Shown in pieces: positions 1,720 to 11,608 of a DNA stretch of 64,000 bases (position 1 is the stretch's first letter; every line of letters begins with the position of its first letter). The notes below the pieces were generated by a model that made no database searches, was not told the origin of the DNA, and worked only from the letters and a program-made list of their open reading frames with translations. The translations under genes were made by a program, and so were the position numbers. This DNA comes from Gammaproteobacteria bacterium (lineage in GTDB: Bacteria; Pseudomonadota; Gammaproteobacteria; Steroidobacterales; JABDKV01): contig JABDJB010000094.1 in the NCBI GenBank assembly GCA_013003425.1, forward strand, positions 6,635 to 70,634. Direction: 5' to 3'.

Positions 1720-2868
1720 AAACAGGCGGGTGTGGACGCCAATAGCGTAGCGGTCGGTCATGCCTGCGATGTAGTCAGCCACGACTCGGGCGCGGGCGCT
1801 GTCCGATACGGCGTTGCTGGCGCTGGCAGCGTGTTCGCGCGGCAGCAGGCCAGGGTTGCCGAAAAAAGCATCGAAAAGCGCATGAATAATACCGCGTGCT
1901 TTTTCGGTCATCTGCAGCACTTCATGGTGACGATAGAGCTCGTCGCGCAGAAAGGCTTTTAGGTCCAGGTGCCTGCCGCGGACGGCGTCGCTGAAGCCGA
2001 TCAGCGTTGTGCCGTGGCCCCGGATATCGTCAATACTCGCCGGCCCTGCCGCCTCGATGTGCTGGCGGCTGTCAAAAATCACGTCGTTGACGACCTCGGC
2101 AATCATCCGGCGCACGGTTTCATGGATCTGACGGCGGTCCTGCAGGTTGGGGTGCAGTTCGCGCACCGTATCGTTGTGGTCGCAAAACAGCGGCACAGCG
2201 CGCAGCTGTTCCACGGTCAGCAGGCCGGAGCGCAGCCCGTCATCGACGTCGTGGTTGTTGTAGGCGATTTCATCAGCGATGTTGGCAAGCTGTGCTTCCA
2301 GCGACGGCTGGGTGCGCTCGAGAAAGCGCCGGCCAAGTTCGCCCAGCTCGCGGGCGTTGCGCGCGGAGCAGTGCTTGAGGATCCCCTCGCGCGCCTCGAA
2401 GGTGAGATTGAGCCCGGGAAAGTCGGCGTATTTTTCTTCCAGCTCGTCGACCACTCGCAGCGACTGCAGATTGTGCTCAAAGCCACCGTGGTCGCCCATA
2501 CATTTGTTCAATGCCTCCTGGCCGGCATGGCCAAACGGCGTGTGGCCAAGATCGTGTGCCAGGCAAATAGTCTCGGTCAGATCTTCGTTGAGGCGCAGCG
2601 CACGGGCGATACTGCGCCCGATCTGGCTTACTTCAAGCGAGTGCGTCAACCGTGTCCGGTACAGGTCACCCTCGTGATTAACAAATACCTGTGTCTTGTA
2701 CTCCAGCCGGCGAAACGCTGTCGAGTGCACGATACGGTCACGGTCACGCTGGAACGGGCTGCGCGTGTGCGCTGCCGTCTCGTCGTAGCGCCGCCCGAGC
2801 GAGTTGGCCTCGGTCACGGCGAAAACTGCCGGGCCGCTGGCCGGGTTCCAGTCGAATTCCGTGCTCAC
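1714..2868 (-). CDS. dgt: Deoxyguanosinetriphosphate triphosphohydrolase (HD family)
   Basis: [71 protein letters not shown]. Confidence 0.93.
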
Positions 2869-3935
2869 AGGTGGGCCCCGCGCAGCACTTCGTCGAGCTT
2901 GTCGTGGTCCACCGCGCTGTGCAGATGGGCATTACCGATGTCTTTCAGCAGGACGAAACGCAGCTTGCCGGCAGCGGATTTCTTGTCCATCCGCATCCAG
3001 CCGCGCCAGTGTTCCGGATCCATCTGCGGTGCCGCCACCGGCAGTCCGGCTTTTGCTACCAGCGCGCGGGTACGTTCGACCGTCTCGTATTCCACCTGGC
3101 CAAGCTGGTACGACAGTTTCGCCGCCAGCACCAGGCCGACAGCCACGGCTTCGCCGTGCAGCCAGGAAAATGCCGTATCGCACTCTATGGCGTGGGCGAA
3201 TGTATGGCCGAGGTTCAGCAAAGCGCGAGGACCCTGTTCGCGCTCGTCGCGGGAGACGATGTCGGATTTTATTTCGCAGCAGCGCGTTATTGCGTGGCTG
3301 AGCGCCGCCGGCTGCTGCGCCAGCAGGTCGTCCATGTGCTGCTCCAGCCAGGAGAAGAATTCTGCATCTGCAATCAACGCATGCTTGATTACTTCGGCCA
3401 GTCCGGAGCGAAACTGACGCTGGTCCAGGCTGCGCAGCGACTGAGTGTCGCTGATTACGCAGCGCGGCTGGTGAAAAGCGCCAATCAGGTTTTTCCCACG
3501 CTCGTGGTTAACCGCAGTCTTGCCACCTACGGACGCATCGACCTGGGCCAGCAGGGTTGTCGGCACCTGGATGAAATTCACACCGCGCAGGTATATCGCT
3601 GCCGCCAGCCCGGTCATGTCGCCGATTACCCCGCCACCCAGTGCGATCAATGTGGCATCACGGCCACAGGCGCACAGCGTGAGCGTGTCGATAATATGCA
3701 TCACCGCGTCCATGCTTTTGTGCGCTTCGCCGTCGGGCAGCACAACAGCGTCGGTGAGGTGGTCGCCGATAGTTGTCTGCAGCGCGGTGAGGTAAAGCGG
3801 CGCGACCCGCGAGTCGGTCACCACCACGTTGGTTGGGCCGAGAAATGGAACGAACAGGTCGCGGCTGGTGAGAACATCAGCCCCGATGTGGATCGGATAG
3901 GACTGCTCACCCAGGTTGACAGTTAATGAGTGCAT
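2865..3935 (-). CDS. aroB: 3-dehydroquinate synthase
   Basis: [57 protein letters not shown]. Confidence 0.97.
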
Positions 3936-3955
3936 TGCCGAAACGAGTTTACCGA

Positions 3956-4017
3956 AAGGGGTCAGGTCTTCCCATTATTCATTTTTCGGAATGAGCAAAG
4001 GGAAGACAGGAACCCTT
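3956..4017. repeat. Imperfect inverted repeat between aroK and aroB, related to the 1535-1719 element
   Basis: AAGGGGTCAGGTCTTCCC (3956-3973) pairs 15/18 with GGGAAGACAGGAACCCTT (4000-4017), with an inner ATTCATT/GAATGAG hairpin. Confidence 0.55.
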
Positions 4018-4028
4018 GGGCCTGCCCC

Positions 4029-4547
4029 CTATGGGCCTGATAAATGACGGTGAATTTCGCGGGCAACGGACTTGACGTAGCGGCGGTCGGTGCAAATCTG
4101 CAGGTGCGCGAGTTCCTCGTAAAGCGGCCCGCGAATTTCCATCAGTTCCTCCAGCCGCGCACGCGGGTCGTCGTCGTGCAGCAATGGGCGGTTTTTGCTG
4201 CTCCGGGTCCGCTCGTACTGCTGGTCCAGCGAGGTCTTGAGGTAGACCAGATAGCCACGCTGGCGCAGGACCTGGCGATTGGGCTCGGCCAGTACGGCAC
4301 CGCCACCGGTTGCAACAACTACGTTTTCGCGCCGGGTCAGTTCATCGAGGGCGGTGGTCTCGCGGTGACGAAAGCCGGCTTCGCCTTCCTTGTCAAAGAT
4401 CAGCGGTATGTCTACACCGGTGCGCTGCTCGATGTAGTGGTCGACATCGACGAATTCATAGTCGAGCAGGCCTGCCAGGCGGCGGCCAACCGCGGTCTTG
4501 CCGGCGCCGGGCGGACCAATCAGGAAAATGCGTTGTGGAGCAGTCAT
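4029..4547 (-). CDS. aroK: Shikimate kinase
   Basis: P-loop GPPGAGKT, EGEAGFR, ATGGG, RPLL, RGPLYEE. Confidence 0.96.
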   Translation of the reverse strand: MTAPQRIFLIGPPGAGKTAVGRRLAGLLDYEFVDVDHYIEQRTGVDIPLIFDKEGEAGFRHRETTALDELTRRENVVVATGGGAVLAEPNRQVLRQRGYLVYLKTSLDQQYERTRSSKNRPLLHDDDPRARLEELMEIRGPLYEELAHLQICTDRRYVKSVAREIHRHLSGP

Positions 4548-4628
4548 CGTAGAGACAGTTTAACGGGATTAATGCACTGGCCGCGGTTTTTCGACACCCG
4601 AAGTTTAAAGCTGTGTTCTGTCCGGAAC

Positions 4629-4661
4629 AAAAAAGGCCAGACTCTGCTGAGCCTGGCCTTT
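4629..4661 (-). terminator. Intrinsic terminator closing the pilMNOPQ-Ig gene unit
   Basis: GGCCAG/CTGGCC stem followed by T6 on the minus strand (A-run 4629-4634), about 20 bp after the Ig-gene stop. Confidence 0.7.
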
Positions 4662-4682
4662 CACTGATCAATTCAGTGAGCG

Positions 4683-6596
4683 CTAGAAATCCTGAGCGCA
4701 GTTGTCCGCGTAGCCCCACGGGCTGGCCCGGAAAATGCTCGTGTCGAACGGCGACGGAAGTATGGGATCAGGCGGCTTCAGCAGGCCGGGCGGCGCCACG
4801 TCCGGCTGTACGTCGTCCGCGGTAACGTCGAGAACGAAGGTTAGATCCTCGGCGTTCTCGCTGCCGCCAACGCTGACCTGAGCGCGCAATTGGACCTCGG
4901 TCCAGGCGCCGTAGATCTTGGCGTAACGCAGCGTTGCCAGGAACTTGCCCTCGGCATCGGTCACCTGGTCGCCGCCGACCACTTCGACCACGTTGCCGGC
5001 CTCAATAGTTTCATTGTTGTTTTCGTCGATTTCGTCGGGATCGAGCAGGCCGTTGCCGTTCAGATCCTCATCGTCGCAGGTTGCCCTGACCAGCGGAGCC
5101 CAGGGCTCGGCGGGAGCCGGTTGTACCCAAATGCCTTTGGAGTATCGCACCGAGCGAATATCCAGCTGTACGTTGGCGTCCGGTACACCATTACCCTCTG
5201 AGTCGGTCACGATCACAAGATAAGGGACCTCATACGCAGTGGTATCGGTTGACTCGGCCAGTTCGTTACCGGTTCCGATGGCAACGAAAAGCTCGCGTCG
5301 CGCAACGGTGATATTGATGGCGTCTGATATCGATGGATCGGACTCAATAAATGCCGATACCGTCACGCCCTGTGCGCCACTTAGCACGTCGCTGGCCGTG
5401 TAGAAGGTCTGTGCGCGGCCCTGGCTGTCGGTGTCTGCCGAACCAACTGACAGCTCGCCGCCCGTGATATCCAGCAGCGTGAAAGCGACGGTGGCGTTCT
5501 TCACCCGGTTGTTGTCCACGTCGCGTACCGTCGCAGTGACGGTAGCCTGATTGTTTGGCGCGATGGTAAACGGGTCGGCCTGAACTTCGATCGTCGCAGG
5601 TGTGGTCGCTATGAATTCGATCGGCAGCTGGGTGGTGGGTCCACCGTCGGCATCTGCAGTAATAACTGCCGGACCAGCGTTGTTCGCGAGCACCCGGATA
5701 GTCGCCGAACCGTCGGCGAGCGTTGTGATAATTGGCGGTCCGGCCAGCGGCACACCGCCGGCATCAACGAAAATACCGCGGGTGGTTGCGAAGCTGACGC
5801 TTTCGCCTGCCTGCGGCACACCGTTTTTCAGCCATATCACGGTGACAACGCGGATAGAGTTGAGCACGATTTCCGCATTGTTCGCCGGGGTACTGAAAGC
5901 GAAGCTGTCGTCAGAAACCGTCAGCACACGACTGGCCGAGAGCCCCAGGCCTGTGGCGGTAAGGGTGTCCTGGCCGCCATTGGAGGCAGTCACATCAACC
6001 TGCGCCTGACCGGAAACATCCGTGGTCAAAGTTGTGGCTGCGAGAGTATTGCCGTTGGACGAGCTGATACTGATCGTTTCGCCCGGTATACCCGAACCGG
6101 CGCCGTCGACCAGCACGATCGTGTAGGTTGCGGTATCGCCCTGCACCAGGCTGTCCGGACCGGAAATACTCAGCTGCGAACCGGCAACTGCCACGGAAAC
6201 CGCACCTGCCAGAGTGCCGGCGGTGGCGGTAACTGTAATGTCACGGTTGGTGGGGTCACCGGCGGTGGTCAGCGAAGCGGAAGCAACACCAGTGGTGTCT
6301 GTGACGGACTGGTTTACAACGATGCCGCCGGAGGTCGCCGAAAATGCTACGTCGACACCCTCGACAAAGTTGTTGTTGCTGTCCTTGACGAACACGGTAA
6401 TCGTCGCCGGGATACCGCCGTCCGACGGGATCTGCGGGTTGTTGGTGATTACCTCAACGCTGGAGATAACGGGGCCGCCACCCGGCGTTCCCGGTGGGGG
6501 CGTGTTTATCCCGCTACCGGTGAGACTGTCGTCATCGCCGCCGCAACTGGCGAGCGCAATCGCCGTCAGGCACAGGGCAGTGATCAGTTTTCGCAT
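4683..6596 (-). CDS. Lipoprotein with ~5 tandem bacterial Ig-like (Big_1/invasin-type) domains
   Basis: Lipobox IALASC, Gly/Pro linker, repeated ATITVxVxDxxxNxVxGxxVxF...TDxxGxA units, D-rich loop near C-terminus; SD GAGGA upstream. Confidence 0.8.
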   Translation of the reverse strand: MRKLITALCLTAIALASCGGDDDSLTGSGINTPPPGTPGGGPVISSVEVITNNPQIPSDGGIPATITVFVKDSNNNFVEGVDVAFSATSGGIVVNQSVTDTTGVASASLTTAGDPTNRDITVTATAGTLAGAVSVAVAGSQLSISGPDSLVQGDTATYTIVLVDGAGSGIPGETISISSSNGNTLAATTLTTDVSGQAQVDVTASNGGQDTLTATGLGLSASRVLTVSDDSFAFSTPANNAEIVLNSIRVVTVIWLKNGVPQAGESVSFATTRGIFVDAGGVPLAGPPIITTLADGSATIRVLANNAGPAVITADADGGPTTQLPIEFIATTPATIEVQADPFTIAPNNQATVTATVRDVDNNRVKNATVAFTLLDITGGELSVGSADTDSQGRAQTFYTASDVLSGAQGVTVSAFIESDPSISDAINITVARRELFVAIGTGNELAESTDTTAYEVPYLVIVTDSEGNGVPDANVQLDIRSVRYSKGIWVQPAPAEPWAPLVRATCDDEDLNGNGLLDPDEIDENNNETIEAGNVVEVVGGDQVTDAEGKFLATLRYAKIYGAWTEVQLRAQVSVGGSENAEDLTFVLDVTADDVQPDVAPPGLLKPPDPILPSPFDTSIFRASPWGYADNCAQDF

Positions 6597-6635
6597 TTGT
6601 ACAATCCTCTGCTGGGACGCCGCCGGGCGTCTCGA

Positions 6636-8837
6636 TTAGTTGAGATTCGCGCCGTCCTTCAAGATACGCGGAGTGACAAAAATCAGCAGCTCCGCTTTGT
6701 TGTTGATCCGCTGTGTCTGGCGGAACAGGTTACCGACCACCGGGATATCGCCCAGCACCGGCACCTTGGTATTGGTTTCGCGTATTTCGGTTTCATAGAT
6801 ACCGCCGAGCACGACAGTTTCGCCATCATCCACCAGGACCTGGGTGACTACTTCGCGAGTATCGATACTTGGCACAAGACCGCCGTTAGCGCTTGGCACG
6901 ACTTCACCAACGTTGTCCTTGCTAACCTGCAGGTCCATGATGATGCGGTCGTCCGGCGTGATCAGCGGTGTTACCACCAGCTGCAGCACGGCCTCTTTGA
7001 ACTGTGTGGCCGTGGCGCCGCTGGCCGAGGCCTCCTGAAATGGAATCTCCACACCCTGTTTGATGCGTGCTTCCTGCTGGTTGGCCGTGATGACCCGCGG
7101 TGTCGAGACGATTTCGCCACGGCCTTCCGACTGCAGCGCCGACAGCTCGAGGTCGAGCAGGTAGTCGGAATCGAGGATCGCCAGCGCCACGCTGCCCACC
7201 GGTGAGCCGCTTGGCGCGTTGATGTTAAAGCGGTCATCAATGTTGGGCAGTGTTACCGGGAAGGGTGAGCCGGTTGTCGTCAGGTTATCGACTGCCGAGC
7301 TGACAATGACGTCGGAGCCGGCCGACGAGCCGGTGACAGAAATCAGCCCGTCCGAGCTGTTGTCGGAAATGCCTGTGTAACCCATGCGCACGCCCAGCTC
7401 GCGGCTGAAGTCGTCGTTGACCACGACGATGCGTGACTCAATCAGAACCTGGCGTACCGGAACGTCCAGCGTCTGCACCAGGCGGCGAATTTCTGCCAGC
7501 TTGTCTGCGGTGTCCTGCACCAGCAAGGTATTGGTGCGCTCGTCGATGGCGACGCTGCCACGCTCTGACAGCAGCGACTGCGTGTCAGCCGTGGACTGGA
7601 TCAGGGTCGCCAGTTCAGATGCCTTGGCGTAGTTTACCTGGATGAACTCGGATCGCAGCGGGGCGAGCTCTTCAAACTGCTTGAGCTTTTCCAGCTCGGC
7701 GCGTTCGCGATTGGCAAGTTCGGCTGCTGGCGCAATGATCACAACATTGTCGCGCTGACGCATGTCGAGGCCCTTGGTCTCGAGAATAATGTCGAGCGCC
7801 TGGTCCCACGGCACATTCTGCAAGCGCAGCGTGACGTTACCGGTCACCGTGTCGCTGACGACCACGTTCATGCCGCTGACATCGGCCAGCAGCTGCAGCA
7901 CCGCGCGGGTGTCGATGTCCTGGAAATTAAGCGTCAGACGTTCGCCTTCGTAGTCCTTGTTTTGCTGCTCTTCGAAGAGGTCCGCCGCAGTAGGTATATA
8001 GGGTTTCAGCTCGACGGTGAACAGGTTGTCGGACTGGTATGCAACCTGCTCGTAGGCGCCACTGGCTGCGACCACCAGGCGGGCATTGCTGTCGGCCTGA
8101 CGTGCATCGACGGTGCTTACCGGAGTTGCGAAATCCAGCACATCCATCCGGCGCCGGAATTCGGCCGGCAACCGCGTGTTCTTGAAGTCGACGATGACGG
8201 TGTTGCCCTGCTCACGCAGATCAACCACCGTGCGCGGATCGCTCAGCGTCACGATGACGCGACCCGAGCCGTCATTCCCGCGGCGGAAATCGACCGCCTG
8301 GATGCTGCGTTCGCCCGGTAACGTGGGCGTGCTGGCCATGCTGGTTGTCGTGGACGTTCCGGGGCCAAAGGCTGGCGCCGCTTCGGCGTACTGCGGCGCA
8401 GTTGCCAGCGTCACGAAAATGGAATTCCCTTCGACACGCGTCTCGTACGGCACCAGCGAATCAAGGTTCAGTACGATGCGCGTACGGCCACTGGCCTCGG
8501 CAGCCAGGATGGTACGCAGCGAACCGATGTCGACGTCCTTGCGCCGGCTGGGCAATGCCAGGCCGGTGTCTGGCAGATCCAGCGAGATACGCGCGGGGCG
8601 GTCGATGGTAAAGCTCAGGGGTTCTGGTGCCGGGCCGCTGAGGCGCAGCTGCAGCTGCAGCTGCTGGCCGGGCAGCGTCTGTACGTCGATTTCCTGCAGC
8701 ATATTGCCAGGCGCATCAGCCGACCAGGCAGTAGCCATGAATAAGCTCAACAACAGGCCGGCCAGCCCCGAAAGGCGCCAGTGCCACAGCGGATCCCCCT
8801 GTTTAAATTCGCTGGGCGTATTGGTCCACGTCATCAC
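6636..8837 (-). CDS. pilQ: Type IV pilus secretin
   Basis: AMIN-like N-terminus, LTLNFQDIDTRAVLQLLA, VTLRLQNVPWDQALD, DERTNTLLV, secretin C-domain ELLIFVTPRI; follows pilP. Confidence 0.96.
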   Translation of the reverse strand: MMTWTNTPSEFKQGDPLWHWRLSGLAGLLLSLFMATAWSADAPGNMLQEIDVQTLPGQQLQLQLRLSGPAPEPLSFTIDRPARISLDLPDTGLALPSRRKDVDIGSLRTILAAEASGRTRIVLNLDSLVPYETRVEGNSIFVTLATAPQYAEAAPAFGPGTSTTTSMASTPTLPGERSIQAVDFRRGNDGSGRVIVTLSDPRTVVDLREQGNTVIVDFKNTRLPAEFRRRMDVLDFATPVSTVDARQADSNARLVVAASGAYEQVAYQSDNLFTVELKPYIPTAADLFEEQQNKDYEGERLTLNFQDIDTRAVLQLLADVSGMNVVVSDTVTGNVTLRLQNVPWDQALDIILETKGLDMRQRDNVVIIAPAAELANRERAELEKLKQFEELAPLRSEFIQVNYAKASELATLIQSTADTQSLLSERGSVAIDERTNTLLVQDTADKLAEIRRLVQTLDVPVRQVLIESRIVVVNDDFSRELGVRMGYTGISDNSSDGLISVTGSSAGSDVIVSSAVDNLTTTGSPFPVTLPNIDDRFNINAPSGSPVGSVALAILDSDYLLDLELSALQSEGRGEIVSTPRVITANQQEARIKQGVEIPFQEASASGATATQFKEAVLQLVVTPLITPDDRIIMDLQVSKDNVGEVVPSANGGLVPSIDTREVVTQVLVDDGETVVLGGIYETEIRETNTKVPVLGDIPVVGNLFRQTQRINNKAELLIFVTPRILKDGANLN

Positions 8838-8849
8838 TAGAACTCCCGG

Positions 8850-9359
8850 TTAGTCGCTAAGTGCAACGGCAGCGGGGCGCTCAATATAGCCACCCAGCCC
8901 GTCACTGATGATTTCAATGAGTTTTATTTCCGAGTCAGAGATTTCTATGACCCGTCCTTCGCTCTGTCCCATGTGGTTGCCGACGCGAACCCGATGCAGC
9001 AGGCCATCGGACGTCTTGACCAGGGCGTAGTCGCTGCCGCTCAGGTTGATCGTGCCCACCATGCGCAGCGTGTCGAGCGGGAACTGCTCGAGAAATTCGC
9101 GCGCCCTGGCCTGGTCCGGCCTGATCGAGCTGGCAGAAGTAGTTGTCGGGCGATCTTCGATCGCAGGCATGAACGGCGACCGCATGTCACTCGCCGAATA
9201 AACGAATGTCTCGTACGGCTTGATCTGCGGCAGCGGTTCGATACGGCCACCCCCGCGGGCATGCACTTCGCCGATGTACTGCTCGAGATCGGAAACATCC
9301 TTGGCGCAACCGCCCAGGGCCACCAGCGCAACGCCTGCAATAACAAATGAGCGCTTCAT
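8850..9359 (-). CDS. pilP: Type IV pilus assembly lipoprotein PilP
   Basis: Lipobox LGGC, IEPLP, RSPF, LEQFPLDTLRMVG, GNHMGQSEGRV; operon position. Confidence 0.93.
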   Translation of the reverse strand: MKRSFVIAGVALVALGGCAKDVSDLEQYIGEVHARGGGRIEPLPQIKPYETFVYSASDMRSPFMPAIEDRPTTTSASSIRPDQARAREFLEQFPLDTLRMVGTINLSGSDYALVKTSDGLLHRVRVGNHMGQSEGRVIEISDSEIKLIEIISDGLGGYIERPAAVALSD

Positions 9360-9976
9360 CGCTGTGCCCCCGCGGTGCCGCCTTCATCGTCCTCGAGATA
9401 GCGGTAGGTTTTTGCCGTCAGGTCCAGCACCAGGTCGGAGTCATTGTCGTTGCTGGTACGTTTAATTTCGATATCGTGCAGGGTCACGATGCGCGGCAGC
9501 GCCGCCACACCACTGACGAATGCCGCCAGCTCGTGAAACGAACCGCGCAGCCGGATACGAATCGGCAGCTCAGCGTAAAAATCCTGCTGCACCTCGCCGG
9601 CCGGCTGGAATAACTCCTCGTCCAGACCCGCCGCCAGACCGGTCTGCGAAATATCTACCAGCAGGCTGGGTACCTCGGTGCGGTTTGGTAGCTGGCGCAG
9701 CATGGCGCCAAACGAGCCTTCCATCTGGTTGAGCTGCTCGGTATAGGCTTCCAGGTTGACCGCTTTGCGTTGCTTGGTCTCGAACGTCGTACGCAGGGTT
9801 TGTTCTTCCTGCTGTACCCGCTCCAGTTGTGGCAGCTGGCCTTTTACGACGAAATAGTAAACACCACCGCCGACCACCAGGATGAAAAGCAGACCGATAA
9901 AAAGCGAGCGAAACAGCAGCGGCCAGCGGCCGATGTCATTGAAGTCGAGCGACTGGAGTTGTTCGAGGAAGTTCAT
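9356..9976 (-). CDS. pilO: Type IV pilus assembly protein PilO
   Basis: Single TM then coiled coil, LRQLPNRTEVPSLLVDISQTG, FYAELPI, LPRIVTLHD. Confidence 0.95.
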   Translation of the reverse strand: MNFLEQLQSLDFNDIGRWPLLFRSLFIGLLFILVVGGGVYYFVVKGQLPQLERVQQEEQTLRTTFETKQRKAVNLEAYTEQLNQMEGSFGAMLRQLPNRTEVPSLLVDISQTGLAAGLDEELFQPAGEVQQDFYAELPIRIRLRGSFHELAAFVSGVAALPRIVTLHDIEIKRTSNDNDSDLVLDLTAKTYRYLEDDEGGTAGAQR

Positions 9977-10542
9977 GAGTCGTCTTCCTCCTCCACTTTG
10001 CGCGGGTTGGTCTGCTCGGCAAAAATTGTGAACTCACTGCTGCGGGACGGCCCGGTGTCTTTCGTTTCAACAACGTCGAGTCCGGGATCAGTCAGCCATG
10101 CCGAGCGGTCGATGTTGCGCATGTACGCCGATACGCGCGTGCTCGACTGCGCTTTACCGCGCAGCGTAATGCGTTTACCGGCTTGCTTTACCAGGTCGAG
10201 ATGCACGCCGTCGGGAAGAGTGCGGGCAAGCTCGTCAAACAGGTGCACAACCTCGGGCCGGCTGCGCTGCAGCTGCTCGATAATCTGCATGCGTGCCAGC
10301 AGCCGCTCCTTCTTGCTTTCCAGATCCCGGATTTCGCCAATCTGCTCGTCGAGCCTTTTGATCTCGGCTTTGAGCATGTCGTTCCGGTTTACCTGGTGCT
10401 CGATCTGGCCGTTGACCATGCTCTTGGCGCCAAAGACCGCAGCGGCACCGATCAGTACCGCACCGGCGGCAGCGACGGCAAAGTTGCGTTGGCGCTCTTT
10501 GCGTAACTCTTCGCGCCATGGAAGTAGATTAATACGAGGCAT
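9973..10542 (-). CDS. pilN: Type IV pilus assembly protein PilN
   Basis: True start MPRINLLPWREE at 10542 (INLLP motif), just after pilM stop. Confidence 0.94.
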   Translation of the reverse strand: MPRINLLPWREELRKERQRNFAVAAAGAVLIGAAAVFGAKSMVNGQIEHQVNRNDMLKAEIKRLDEQIGEIRDLESKKERLLARMQIIEQLQRSRPEVVHLFDELARTLPDGVHLDLVKQAGKRITLRGKAQSSTRVSAYMRNIDRSAWLTDPGLDVVETKDTGPSRSSEFTIFAEQTNPRKVEEEDDS

Positions 10543-10543
10543 T

Positions 10544-11608
10544 TCAGTCGAAACTCCGCAACGCCAGGCCACAGGCAGTGAGTAACGCAGTGGCGTCCTT
10601 GTGTACGCCGGCGGCCTTGGCTTTCGAGGCAACTTTCATTTTTCCGAGTGGATCACCGATCTCAGTCGGTATACCAACCCTGCTTGCAATGAGGTCGGCC
10701 ACGCCGGGAATGTTGGCGCAGCCACCGCATATGAGAATGTGTTCCGGTTGTTCGCGGCCGCCGCCTGAAGCCAGGTAAAACTGCAGTGAGCGGCTGACCT
10801 GCTGGGTCATATCGTCAATGAAAGCATCCAGCACTTCGGGTCCGTAGTTACTCGGTAACCCGCCTTCTTTTTTCGCCCGGCCGGCCTCCTGCAGGCTGAG
10901 GCCGTAGGTTCGCATGATCTCTTCGGTGAGCTGTTGGCCGCCGAAAGCAAAGTCACGTGTGTAGATGACCTTAAGATTACGCAGCACACTAAACGACGTG
11001 CTGGTGGCGCCAAAATCGATAACCGCGATTGAATGGTCGGCACCTTCGTCCGGCATCTGGTGTTTCATCAGGTAGCAGGCGTTTTCCACCGCAAAAGCTT
11101 CAACGTCGACGATGCGGGCGTTAAGACCGGCGGCCTCCACGGCAGCCTGTCGTTGCTCGACGTTTTCAGTACGTGTGGCAACCAGCAGCACGTCCATCAT
11201 CTCCGGGTCTTTCTCCGAAGCGCCGATGATCTCAAAGTCGTAGCTGACTTCTTCCATCGGGAATGGAATGTACTGGTCCGCCTGCAGTTCGACCTGTCCT
11301 TCCAGATCCGTGCCCTGAAACGAGCCTGGCATCTGGATGACTTTGGTAATAGCTGCATCGCCGCTTATAGCGACAGCGGCATCACGTGTCTTTGCACCCG
11401 AACGCTTGACAGCAATACGTACCGCCTCACCCACAGCATCAGCGTCGACGATAGCTTTCTCGTTGACCGAATTGAGCGGTGTCGGTTGTGCCGCATAGGA
11501 TTCCACACGGTAACGCGACCCGCTTTTGCTCAATTCGATGAGCTTTACGGATGAGGTTGTTATGTCAAGCCCGAGTACAGGCCGATTCTTACTCGAGAAG
11601 ATAGGCAT
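10544..11608 (-). CDS. pilM: Type IV pilus assembly protein PilM
   Basis: LGLDITTSSVKLIELS actin-like fold, IVDVEAFA, ACGLALRSF. Confidence 0.96.
   Translation of the reverse strand: MPIFSSKNRPVLGLDITTSSVKLIELSKSGSRYRVESYAAQPTPLNSVNEKAIVDADAVGEAVRIAVKRSGAKTRDAAVAISGDAAITKVIQMPGSFQGTDLEGQVELQADQYIPFPMEEVSYDFEIIGASEKDPEMMDVLLVATRTENVEQRQAAVEAAGLNARIVDVEAFAVENACYLMKHQMPDEGADHSIAVIDFGATSTSFSVLRNLKVIYTRDFAFGGQQLTEEIMRTYGLSLQEAGRAKKEGGLPSNYGPEVLDAFIDDMTQQVSRSLQFYLASGGGREQPEHILICGGCANIPGVADLIASRVGIPTEIGDPLGKMKVASKAKAAGVHKDATALLTACGLALRSFD

Follow-up and report, generated by a model that had tools for sequence, protein, structure and literature searches.

Few envelope machines have been studied as well as the pilMNOPQ cassette, whose list of genes is regarded as closed. 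The stretch of gammaproteobacterial DNA analysed here (64,000 nucleotides; hereafter the window) raises the question of what one further gene, X, is doing at the end of this cassette, between pilQ and aroK. An initial annotation, made from the letters of the window, suggested a co-transcribed accessory of the pilus machine, such as a surface adhesin, a secretin partner or a periplasmic spacer. No pilQ-adjacent Ig lipoprotein was found in the literature that we searched, and the X family is undescribed there.

X occupies 4683..6596 on the minus strand and encodes an Ig-repeat lipoprotein of 637 aa (P0001), as seen from its translation, Pfam matches, homologs and an AF2 model. The 741 homologs are full-length at 36-75% identity, and the ORF is therefore more than a chance one. 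On the same strand lie pilM (10544-11608; Pfam PilM_2, 1.4e-120), pilN (listed as 9973-10632, with a true start that is probably later; PilN, 6.7e-22), pilO (9356-9976; PilO, 2e-54), pilP (8850-9359; PilP, 2.1e-47) and pilQ (6636-8837; Secretin, 8.8e-51, with two AMIN domains, STN and Secretin_N), and PilQ scores 525 bits against TIGR02515 (cut-off 284). This block 5' of X (6636..11608) is the set of alignment and secretin genes of a type IVa pilus. The minus-strand genes aroK (4029-4547; SKI, 6.2e-51) and aroB (2865-3935; DHQ_synthase and DHQS_C) are housekeeping genes (2865..4547) beyond the X terminator, and ponA is divergent. The pilQ stop codon (TAA, 6636-6638) and the X start codon (ATG, 6594-6596) are separated by 39 nt (6597..6635, minus strand) that contain the SD sequence AGAGGA (6605-6610), 8 nt 5' of the ATG, and a GC hairpin (6616-6631) without a U tract; a sequence scan of this gap found neither a sigma-70-like promoter nor a terminator-like site. 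Two hairpins follow the X stop codon (4626..4679, minus strand), one at 4661-4679 and then an intrinsic terminator composed of a 12-bp stem-loop (4633-4660) and a U tract reaching 4626. The terminator was overlooked by a simple scan and recovered by folding against 200 shuffles: the 81-nt region folds at -33.6 kcal/mol (z = -4.2), and 0/200 shuffles were equally stable.

The protein has the layout of an anchored rod; all coordinates of its parts are on the minus strand. Residues 1-18 (6543..6596) read as a signal peptide, MRKLITALCLTAIALASC, with the lipobox L-A-S-C. Cys18, the predicted lipidated residue, is invariant among 32 aligned X sequences, and X was also recovered by a rough lipoprotein screen of the whole genome. 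The Gly/Asp/Pro-rich tether that follows (residues 19-44; 6465..6542) opens with the sorting-type motif CGGDDDS and is modelled as disordered (pLDDT <50 for residues 17-39). Four Big_1/invasin-type Ig domains come next (5304..6464), at residues ~45-138, 139-229, 230-331 and 332-431 of an AF2 model with a pLDDT of 86. Their assignment draws on Pfam (Big_1, E 7e-34 over three stretches, and Invasin_D3), on a profile match to intimin Ig domains in the PDB (E 6e-17), on the strands of the model and on Foldseek, which matches the model to invasin (1cwv) and, with the whole chain, returns multi-Ig proteins only. The signature of the family is the C-terminal beta-sandwich (residues 432-608 in the AF2 model; 4773..5303), carried by at least 1400 representative sequence clusters. 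Folded alone, it is all-beta with an inserted loop (pLDDT 89.8, pTM 0.85); no Pfam or NCBIfam model matches it, and the PDB offers no solved look-alike: generic Ig sandwiches match it weakly (best E 3e-4, TM <=0.38).

Conservation is concentrated in an Asp/Asn-rich loop of this last domain, DEDLNGNGLLDPDEIDENNNETIEAGN (residues 509-536; 4989..5072), a putative Ca2+-binding insertion with a pairwise identity of 0.69 and 9 columns at >=95%. Invariant in or near it are C507, just N-terminal of the loop, and D509, E510, D511, G516, D519, E522, D524 and N526. Judged by this motif, the loop probably binds Ca2+. Three more residues, S625, G628 and C633, are invariant in the C-terminal tail (residues 609-637; 4686..4772), and C633 is the likely disulfide partner of C507, in a bond that probably holds the loop. 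The Ig domains are evenly conserved within the orthologous clade (pairwise identity ~0.47-0.57), and the tether is the least conserved segment (0.29). With the loop the most and the tether the least conserved part, the tip is the candidate functional site. The initial annotation had anticipated much of this: a 637-aa lipoprotein with a LASC lipobox, about five Ig repeats (now four Big_1-type domains and a larger fifth beta-sandwich, by Pfam and AF2), a start 39 nt past pilQ with its own SD, and an intrinsic terminator between X and aroK, which it had put at 4629-4661.

The position of X is strongly conserved. At all 79 related loci of Woeseiaceae, Steroidobacterales and relatives (79/79) it lies between pilQ and aroK on one strand, a count that includes loci where the stored stretch reaches just pilQ or aroK and X adjoins whichever is present; wherever the stretch extends far enough, the order is pilMNOPQ-X-aroK-aroB. 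The pilQ-X gap stays at ~20-65 nt, and a terminator-like site occurs 3' of X, in the X-aroK gap, at 54/67 of these loci as against merely 3/71 between pilQ and X. Where aroK is missing, X is still beside pilQ in four loci out of five (L094, L102, L103 and L109; L097 is the opposite case). Orthologs keep to a tight length range of 603-760 aa, and the 33 sampled form one clade (support 99). Other gammaproteobacterial families have relatives of 616-1869 aa directly 3' of pilQ. The wider family that shares the C-terminal domain adjoins pil genes in about half of its members and is unlinked in the other half, the linked members falling on several deep branches and belonging to several families; the best tree of the domain, poorly resolved outside the core clade, needs 8 linkage changes, and its well-supported branches force 2. 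Two further occurrences were set aside. A "mini" form of 221 aa after pilQ (L112) turned out to be an ORF of 170 aa that lacks a signal peptide and is probably a remnant, and a second copy of X in the source genome (contig C93) brings its own pilQ, aroK and aroB, for which a mis-binned contig is a likelier explanation than a true paralog.

The best reading of gap, terminators and synteny is thus that X closes a predicted pilMNOPQ-X transcription unit as its sixth gene, in agreement with the initial annotation, which had taken it for the conserved terminal gene of the operon. Among the observations named there as speaking against this proposal were homologs mostly unlinked to pil genes and an independent promoter in the 39-bp gap. 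The orthologs proved to be linked, as is about half of the wider family, and the scan of the gap gave no such promoter.

The company that X keeps in genomes points to the type IVa pilus and to a secretion route. Every genome with its C-terminal domain is PilP-positive (28/28, against 195/272 of the genomes without the family, p = 2e-4), and the 77 PilP-negative genomes of the sample all lack the domain. Among PilP-positive genomes, those with X have GspN in 25/28 cases and those lacking X in 93/195 (odds ratio 9, p = 2.5e-5), an association that may in part reflect shared lifestyle or ancestry, because the genomes are not independent. GspL and GspN are each found in 38 of 40 X-bearing genomes, including the source genome, which has both on contig C37 and GspD on contig C4; the class sample contains three X-bearing genomes without a GspN match (G022, G221 and G237), and in G022 (locus L102) X lies immediately after pilQ. 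Display by GspN requires a GGG or Gly/Asp motif after the lipid cysteine, the sorting motif at P2'-P4' being Gly/Ser-, Asn/Asp- or Gly/Asp-rich (PMC12802150). The CGGDDDS of X fits the P2'-P4' motif of T2SS/GspN cargo, and mature N-termini across 72 family members read CGG[GSD] or CSGG. In the source genome, lipoprotein candidates with a G/S/D/N-rich P2'-P6' form a distinct minority class to which X belongs. As a sorting signal the motif is suggestive, since ordinary outer-membrane lipoproteins often have G/S-rich tethers too.

Weighed against a secretin partner or a periplasmic spacer, a surface adhesin is the role to which the evidence leans, in view of the very long relatives that follow pilQ, the Gly/Asp sorting motif and the co-occurrence with GspN. 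Proteins of up to 7473 aa end in the terminal domain that X has, as do the 1269-1869-aa proteins found right after pilQ, and these are too long for the periplasm. The invasin/intimin type of the Ig domains also speaks for surface display. Our main reading, to which we assign a probability of about 0.45, is that X is a pilus-operon-encoded, invasin-like adhesin displayed on the surface by T2SS and GspN; surface location, export route and adhesive role are all things that we infer. In the mechanism proposed, X would be synthesised along with the PilQ secretin and lipidated at Cys18, and the Gly/Asp motif after the lipid cysteine would retain it for export. The T2SS and GspN of the genome would then place it on the outer membrane's outer face, as with Acinetobacter InvL. 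There it would stand as a rod of ~20 nm, an estimate from the domain count, in which the flexible Gly/Asp tether leads to four Ig domains of the invasin type and then to the fifth beta-sandwich, whose exposed Asp/Asn loop, probably Ca2+-bound and disulfide-held, would be the working tip. Such a molecule could act as a short-range, Ca2+-dependent adhesin, gripping a surface or partner that is drawn near by the retracting type IV pilus.

The tightly kept length of X and the even conservation of its Ig domains would also suit a periplasmic part of fixed length. X might be a structural partner of the pilus machine on the periplasmic side, held in the outer membrane's inner leaflet beside PilQ, with its Ig rod running along the periplasmic domains of PilQ toward PilP, PilN and PilO as a spacer, brace or gate-associated part. 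We regard this as unlikely, even if several observations agree with it: the rod length expected from the domain count is about the width of the periplasm, Gly at +2 specifies the outer membrane under E. coli rules, and X sits beside pilQ in what the synteny and terminator pattern suggest is a shared transcript of which it is a part of tightly kept length. In residual evolutionary distances, X also tracks PilQ best among eight neighbours (partial r 0.26, Mantel p 0.0045), followed by PilM (0.22), with values near 0 for AroK, AroB and PonA. This co-variation suits a physical partner of PilQ no less than an independent adhesin, but the mirror-tree signal is weak and noisy, pairs with no known contact also scoring high, for instance PilN-PonA at 0.51. 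Against a periplasmic location stand the long relatives, which exceed the periplasm, the half of the wider family that lives away from pil genes, and the canonical pilotin PilW/PilF of the source genome, which leaves no gap needing X; moreover, the well-studied type IVa pilus machines known to us function without an X-like part.

The tie to the secretin could instead be one of export, with X as cargo of the pilus machine that leaves through PilQ, perhaps with the pilus as a piston, and pilMNOPQ-X as a joint operon for pilus and adhesin display. The linkage is specific to the secretin gene and survives the loss of aroK, the family is confined to PilP-positive genomes, the machine of the type IVa pilus is a homolog of the T2SS, and three X-bearing genomes have no GspN match, G022 with its X right after pilQ among them. 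A known route is nonetheless available in nearly all X-bearing genomes, unlinked paralogs exist, and we know of no lipoprotein or folded cargo that passes a type IVa pilus secretin, so that we consider this a long shot. An opposite view is that position carries no message, an adhesin or envelope protein having once been inserted at the stable pilQ-aroK junction and inherited there without a functional tie to the pilus. No functional reason is known to us for the conserved pilQ-aroK-aroB order, and since the sampled orthologs form one clade, a single insertion that was then inherited vertically accounts for most of the 79 loci; the unlinked half of the wider family agrees. Yet operon signals, in particular the asymmetry of terminators before and after X, are kept besides gene order, X stays after pilQ in most loci without aroK, linked members occur on several deep branches and in several families, and no member occurs in the PilP-negative genomes (0/77). 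Mere synteny is in our opinion distinctly improbable. Taken jointly, two forms of a dedicated, operon-encoded outer-membrane partner of the type IVa pilus machine in a wide range of environmental Gammaproteobacteria are somewhat unlikely: X might leave through PilQ or alongside it and be displayed where the pilus emerges, or it might dock on PilQ as a new structural element. Both forms would have the conserved calcium-loop tip touch the pilus, PilQ or the substratum.

X is an additional operon gene whose signals are conserved in dozens of species, all of them from abundant bacteria of marine sediment and soil (Woeseiaceae, Steroidobacterales and others), and its relatives after pilQ in further families reach three times its length. 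If it is an adhesin co-produced with the secretin, as in our main reading, pilus-driven approach would be coupled to lipoprotein-mediated attachment in particle-attached bacteria, and display by T2SS and GspN would extend a newly described class of lipoproteins past pathogens. If X docks on or passes through PilQ, what counts as a part or as a cargo of the type IVa pilus system changes, and a dedicated partner would be a sixth core-linked component of a machine thought to be fully inventoried.

Several known systems invite comparison. Bacterial alpha-2-macroglobulins (ECAM/YfhM-type periplasmic lipoproteins) are likewise lipoproteins with MG-/Ig-like beta-sandwich repeats, and X gives weak MG2 and MG4 hits in Pfam and matches in Foldseek. 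These MG hits overlap the stronger Big_1 matches, and X, at 637 aa against >1500 aa, lacks the A2M, thioester and receptor-binding domains; membership of this family was therefore rejected. Known outer-membrane accessories of type IVa pili are TsaP and the pilotins PilF, PilW and Tgl. X is a lipoprotein, as the pilotins are, and it is encoded beside the PilQ secretin or may act on it. The pilotins, however, are small proteins with TPR, one for each system, and TsaP has LysM, whereas X has neither TPR nor LysM. A PilW is encoded elsewhere in the source genome (contig C61; TIGR02521, 213 bits, cut-off 154), for which reason we lean against a pilotin-like role and discarded X as a pilotin replacement. 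The inverse autotransporters invasin and intimin (type Ve; PDB 1cwv, 1f00, 6tpl) resemble X in being rods with a distal binding domain and in their Big_1 Ig domains, alike by sequence and by fold. X is nevertheless no classical invasin or intimin: just 44 residues precede its first Ig domain, Pfam finds no 12-stranded beta-barrel translocator, a lipid anchor takes the place of the N-terminal barrel and LysM region, and the tip is not C-type-lectin-like.

A close parallel is InvL of Acinetobacter baumannii, a barrel-less, invasin-like lipoprotein adhesin and substrate of T2SS and GspN (PMC9245377, PMC12802150). InvL has 492 aa, with three Ig domains and a C-terminal lectin-like cap packed on the last of them (PMC9245377), whereas X has four Ig domains and, in place of a lectin-like fold, a beta-sandwich cap with an Asp/Asn loop; X is linked to a pilus operon, of which InvL is not reported to be a member. 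Both proteins have an N-terminal lipobox where a beta-barrel would otherwise be the anchor, both have invasin-type Ig domains in series, and in both a Gly-rich motif stands right after the lipid cysteine (GGG in InvL, CGGDDDS in X). The T2SS with GspN that such cargo requires is encoded in the source genome (GspD, GspL, GspN), and by analogy X is predicted to depend on it as an InvL-type cargo.

In the window, pilM, pilN, pilO, pilP and pilQ (pilQ at 6636–8837; Pfam) lie on the minus strand and are followed there by X (4683–6596; ORF call and Pfam scan), the gene of a 637-aa Ig-repeat lipoprotein, and then by aroK and aroB, with ponA oriented divergently. The translated N-terminus of X, MRKLITALCLTAIALASC, is a lipoprotein signal with the lipobox LASC and Cys18. 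By sequence read, 39 nt separate the pilQ stop from the X ATG. This gap contains the Shine-Dalgarno element AGAGGA, 8 nt upstream of the start, and, just 5´ of it, a 6-bp GC hairpin (GACGCC-cggc-GGCGTC; 6616–6631, minus strand) that lacks a U tract and could influence how well the distal cistron is translated, or how stable it is, relative to the genes before it. A separate promoter in the gap was named in the initial annotation as evidence against co-transcription; a promoter scan found no sigma-70-like site across 3900–7200 of the window. Between X and aroK lies a strong intrinsic terminator, a 12-bp hairpin with a U tract (hairpin 4633–4660, minus strand), of which the 81-nt fold has –33.6 kcal/mol (z = –4.2; 0 of 200 shuffles as stable). 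A second, 7-bp hairpin (4661–4679, minus strand) abuts the X stop codon immediately ahead of it, forming tandem stem-loops. The gap, Shine-Dalgarno element, lipobox and terminator thus bear out every element of the initial observation.

Full-length homologs of X (741; 36–75% identity) come from uncultured Gammaproteobacteria and are labelled in the source solely as "Ig-like domain-containing" or "hypothetical". The neighbourhood survey proposed earlier, run on one genome per species, yielded 79 loci, including Woeseiaceae, Steroidobacteraceae, Nevskiaceae and "Chromatiales" MAGs as well as the cultured Lentisalinibacter. Within the reach of each contig, all 79 have the order ponA, then pilMNOPQ-X-aroK-aroB on one strand. 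The pilQ-X gap is about 20–65 nt and the X-aroK gap mostly 55–125 nt. In 54 of 67 loci, a hairpin with a T run separates X from aroK; between pilQ and X one occurs in only 3 of 71, these three being weak 5-bp stems within the signal-peptide coding region; therefore, the operon signals are conserved, beyond gene order alone. Outside the window, a 6.6-kb contig of the same genome (C93; locus L081) holds a second pilP-pilQ-X-aroK-aroB stretch with 46–64% amino-acid identity to the genes of the window. Because housekeeping aroK and aroB are duplicated there, this suggests a mis-binned contig of a related species rather than a paralog. The pattern recurs in MAG Ww579 (L007 and L015).

Pfam finds Big_1 in three stretches of X (E 7e-34) and also Invasin_D3; weaker MG2 and MG4 matches overlap these, and an identity as alpha-2-macroglobulin was rejected. 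A search of the PDB with the X family profile recovers Ig domains of intimin (E 6e-17). The AlphaFold2 model (pLDDT 86; input alignment of 32 sequences) has a disordered tether (residues 19–44), four Ig sandwiches (45–138, 139–229, 230–331 and 332–431) and a larger fifth beta-sandwich (432–608; the C-domain) followed by a short tail, which gives substance to the roughly five Ig-type repeats first noted. Foldseek with the whole chain retrieves invasin (1cwv) and further multi-Ig proteins. Modelled by itself, the C-domain reaches pLDDT 89.8 and pTM 0.85; a PDB search with it gave nothing beyond weak matches of a generic Ig type (best E 3e-4, TM at or below 0.38), and neither Pfam nor NCBIfam has a model for it. 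Within it, the loop DEDLNGNGLLDPDEIDENNNETIEAGN (residues 509–536) has the highest pairwise identity among 47 orthologs (0.69; Ig4 0.57, remaining Ig domains about 0.47–0.48, tether lowest at 0.29). From its sequence, the loop is predicted to bind calcium, and the invariant Cys507 flanking it may form a disulfide with the second invariant cysteine, Cys633, in the tail.

A search with the C-domain returned at least 1400 representative clusters, 778 of them with E at or below 1e-10, in which it usually stands at the C-terminus of proteins of 200–7473 aa; an even class sample of 301 genomes includes 28, from 24 genera, that carry it. Among 20 loci inspected from this sample, eight have a full X relative directly 3´ of pilQ (616 to 1869 aa, each with a lipobox and then G/S/D-rich residues), four of them without aroK downstream (L094, L102, L103 and L109). 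One (L097) has X with aroK-aroB and without pilQ, and one (L112, genome G192; 9573–10085) has as its sole ORF between pilQ and aroK a 170-aa C-domain protein without signal peptide, probably a decayed X. The remaining ten are found at other genomic sites with unrelated neighbourhoods. The concern that homologs might be mostly unlinked to pil genes thus falls away for the orthologs and stands in part for the wider family. In a C-domain tree, the 33 sampled orthologs form one well-supported clade, all linked; the rest of the tree intermixes linked and unlinked copies, with poor resolution. Genome G224 carries both a linked copy (L094, 1869 aa) and an unlinked one (L098, 883 aa). The C-domains of the two are almost identical and pair as sister branches (0.15 and 0.20, support 97), indicating that a copy duplicated recently and escaped the pil locus. 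Where X has a giant form, additional large proteins, either lipoproteins or secreted, are encoded downstream (1192 aa at 3075–6653 of L103; 1522 aa at 229–4797 of L094), suggesting that larger adhesin clusters are appended to pilMNOPQ in some lineages.

The data establish the gene, its domain layout and its place in the operon; where the protein sits, how it is exported and what it does are inferred. On our best-supported reading, X closes a pilMNOPQ-X unit, and its product is an Ig rod, anchored by lipid, whose conserved tip probably binds Ca2+. X would be displayed on the outside of the cell, most likely through the T2SS-GspN pathway taken by InvL, the barrel-less invasin-like lipoprotein adhesin of Acinetobacter baumannii, and, co-produced with the pilus secretin, would act as a short-range adhesin. 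A serious rival is that X is a periplasmic partner of PilQ. Its length is tightly kept within the core clade, and its residual pairwise distances, after removal of the signal shared with other neighbours, weakly track those of PilQ most (partial r 0.26, Mantel p 0.0045; next PilM, 0.22; AroK, AroB and PonA near zero), in a measure noisy enough to give 0.51 for PilN-PonA. Proteins ending in the C-domain, however, include some of 1269–1869 aa encoded right after pilQ, and elsewhere they reach 7473 aa; these lengths exceed the periplasm and therefore favour an extracellular location of the family. X does not replace the pilotin, since the genome already encodes a bona fide PilW/PilF (TIGR02521, 213 bits vs a cut-off of 154).

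Surface lipoproteins that depend on the T2SS, such as InvL, require GspN and a motif adjoining the lipid cysteine; in Acinetobacter this motif reads GGG or ND(N/D), and Burkholderia and Shewanella have a Gly/Asp hybrid (Roberts et al., PMC12802150). Mature X starts with CGGDDDS, and CGG[GSD].. or CSGG.. begins the mature protein in the 72 family members that parsed. Among about 214 lipoprotein candidates in the genome (rough screen), G/S/D/N content at P2'–P6' after the cysteine is bimodal, and X belongs to the minority rich in these residues (about 25, mostly 450–1180 aa), whose members are candidates for surface display through GspN. For the T2SS, the genome has GspD (547 bits) and, separately on contig C37, a gspG-N cluster including GspL and GspN; besides PilQ and GspD it has MshL-type and Tad-type secretins (contigs C4, C58, C92 and C37 overall). 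Of 40 genomes that carry X, 38 have GspL and 38 have GspN. With genomes treated as independent, which does not fully hold, and with about one genome sampled per genus, C-domain genomes in the class sample are enriched in PilP (28/28 vs 195/272 others, p = 2e-4) and GspN (25/28 vs 105/272, p = 2e-7), the latter also among PilP-positive genomes (25/28 vs 93/195; odds ratio 9, p = 2.5e-5). Beside this association with GspN, export of X through PilQ itself is less likely, as is plain synteny inertia beside the conserved operon signals and the four loci that keep X at pilQ without aroK.

We found no description of an Ig lipoprotein adjoining pilQ in the searched literature, and X as an inverse autotransporter was rejected. 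In its proposed way of working, X is closest to InvL, likewise a barrel-less invasin-like lipoprotein (PMC9245377). InvL, however, ends in a lectin-like cap where X carries another domain, and it has no reported pilus link; X therefore falls outside the InvL family in the strict sense.
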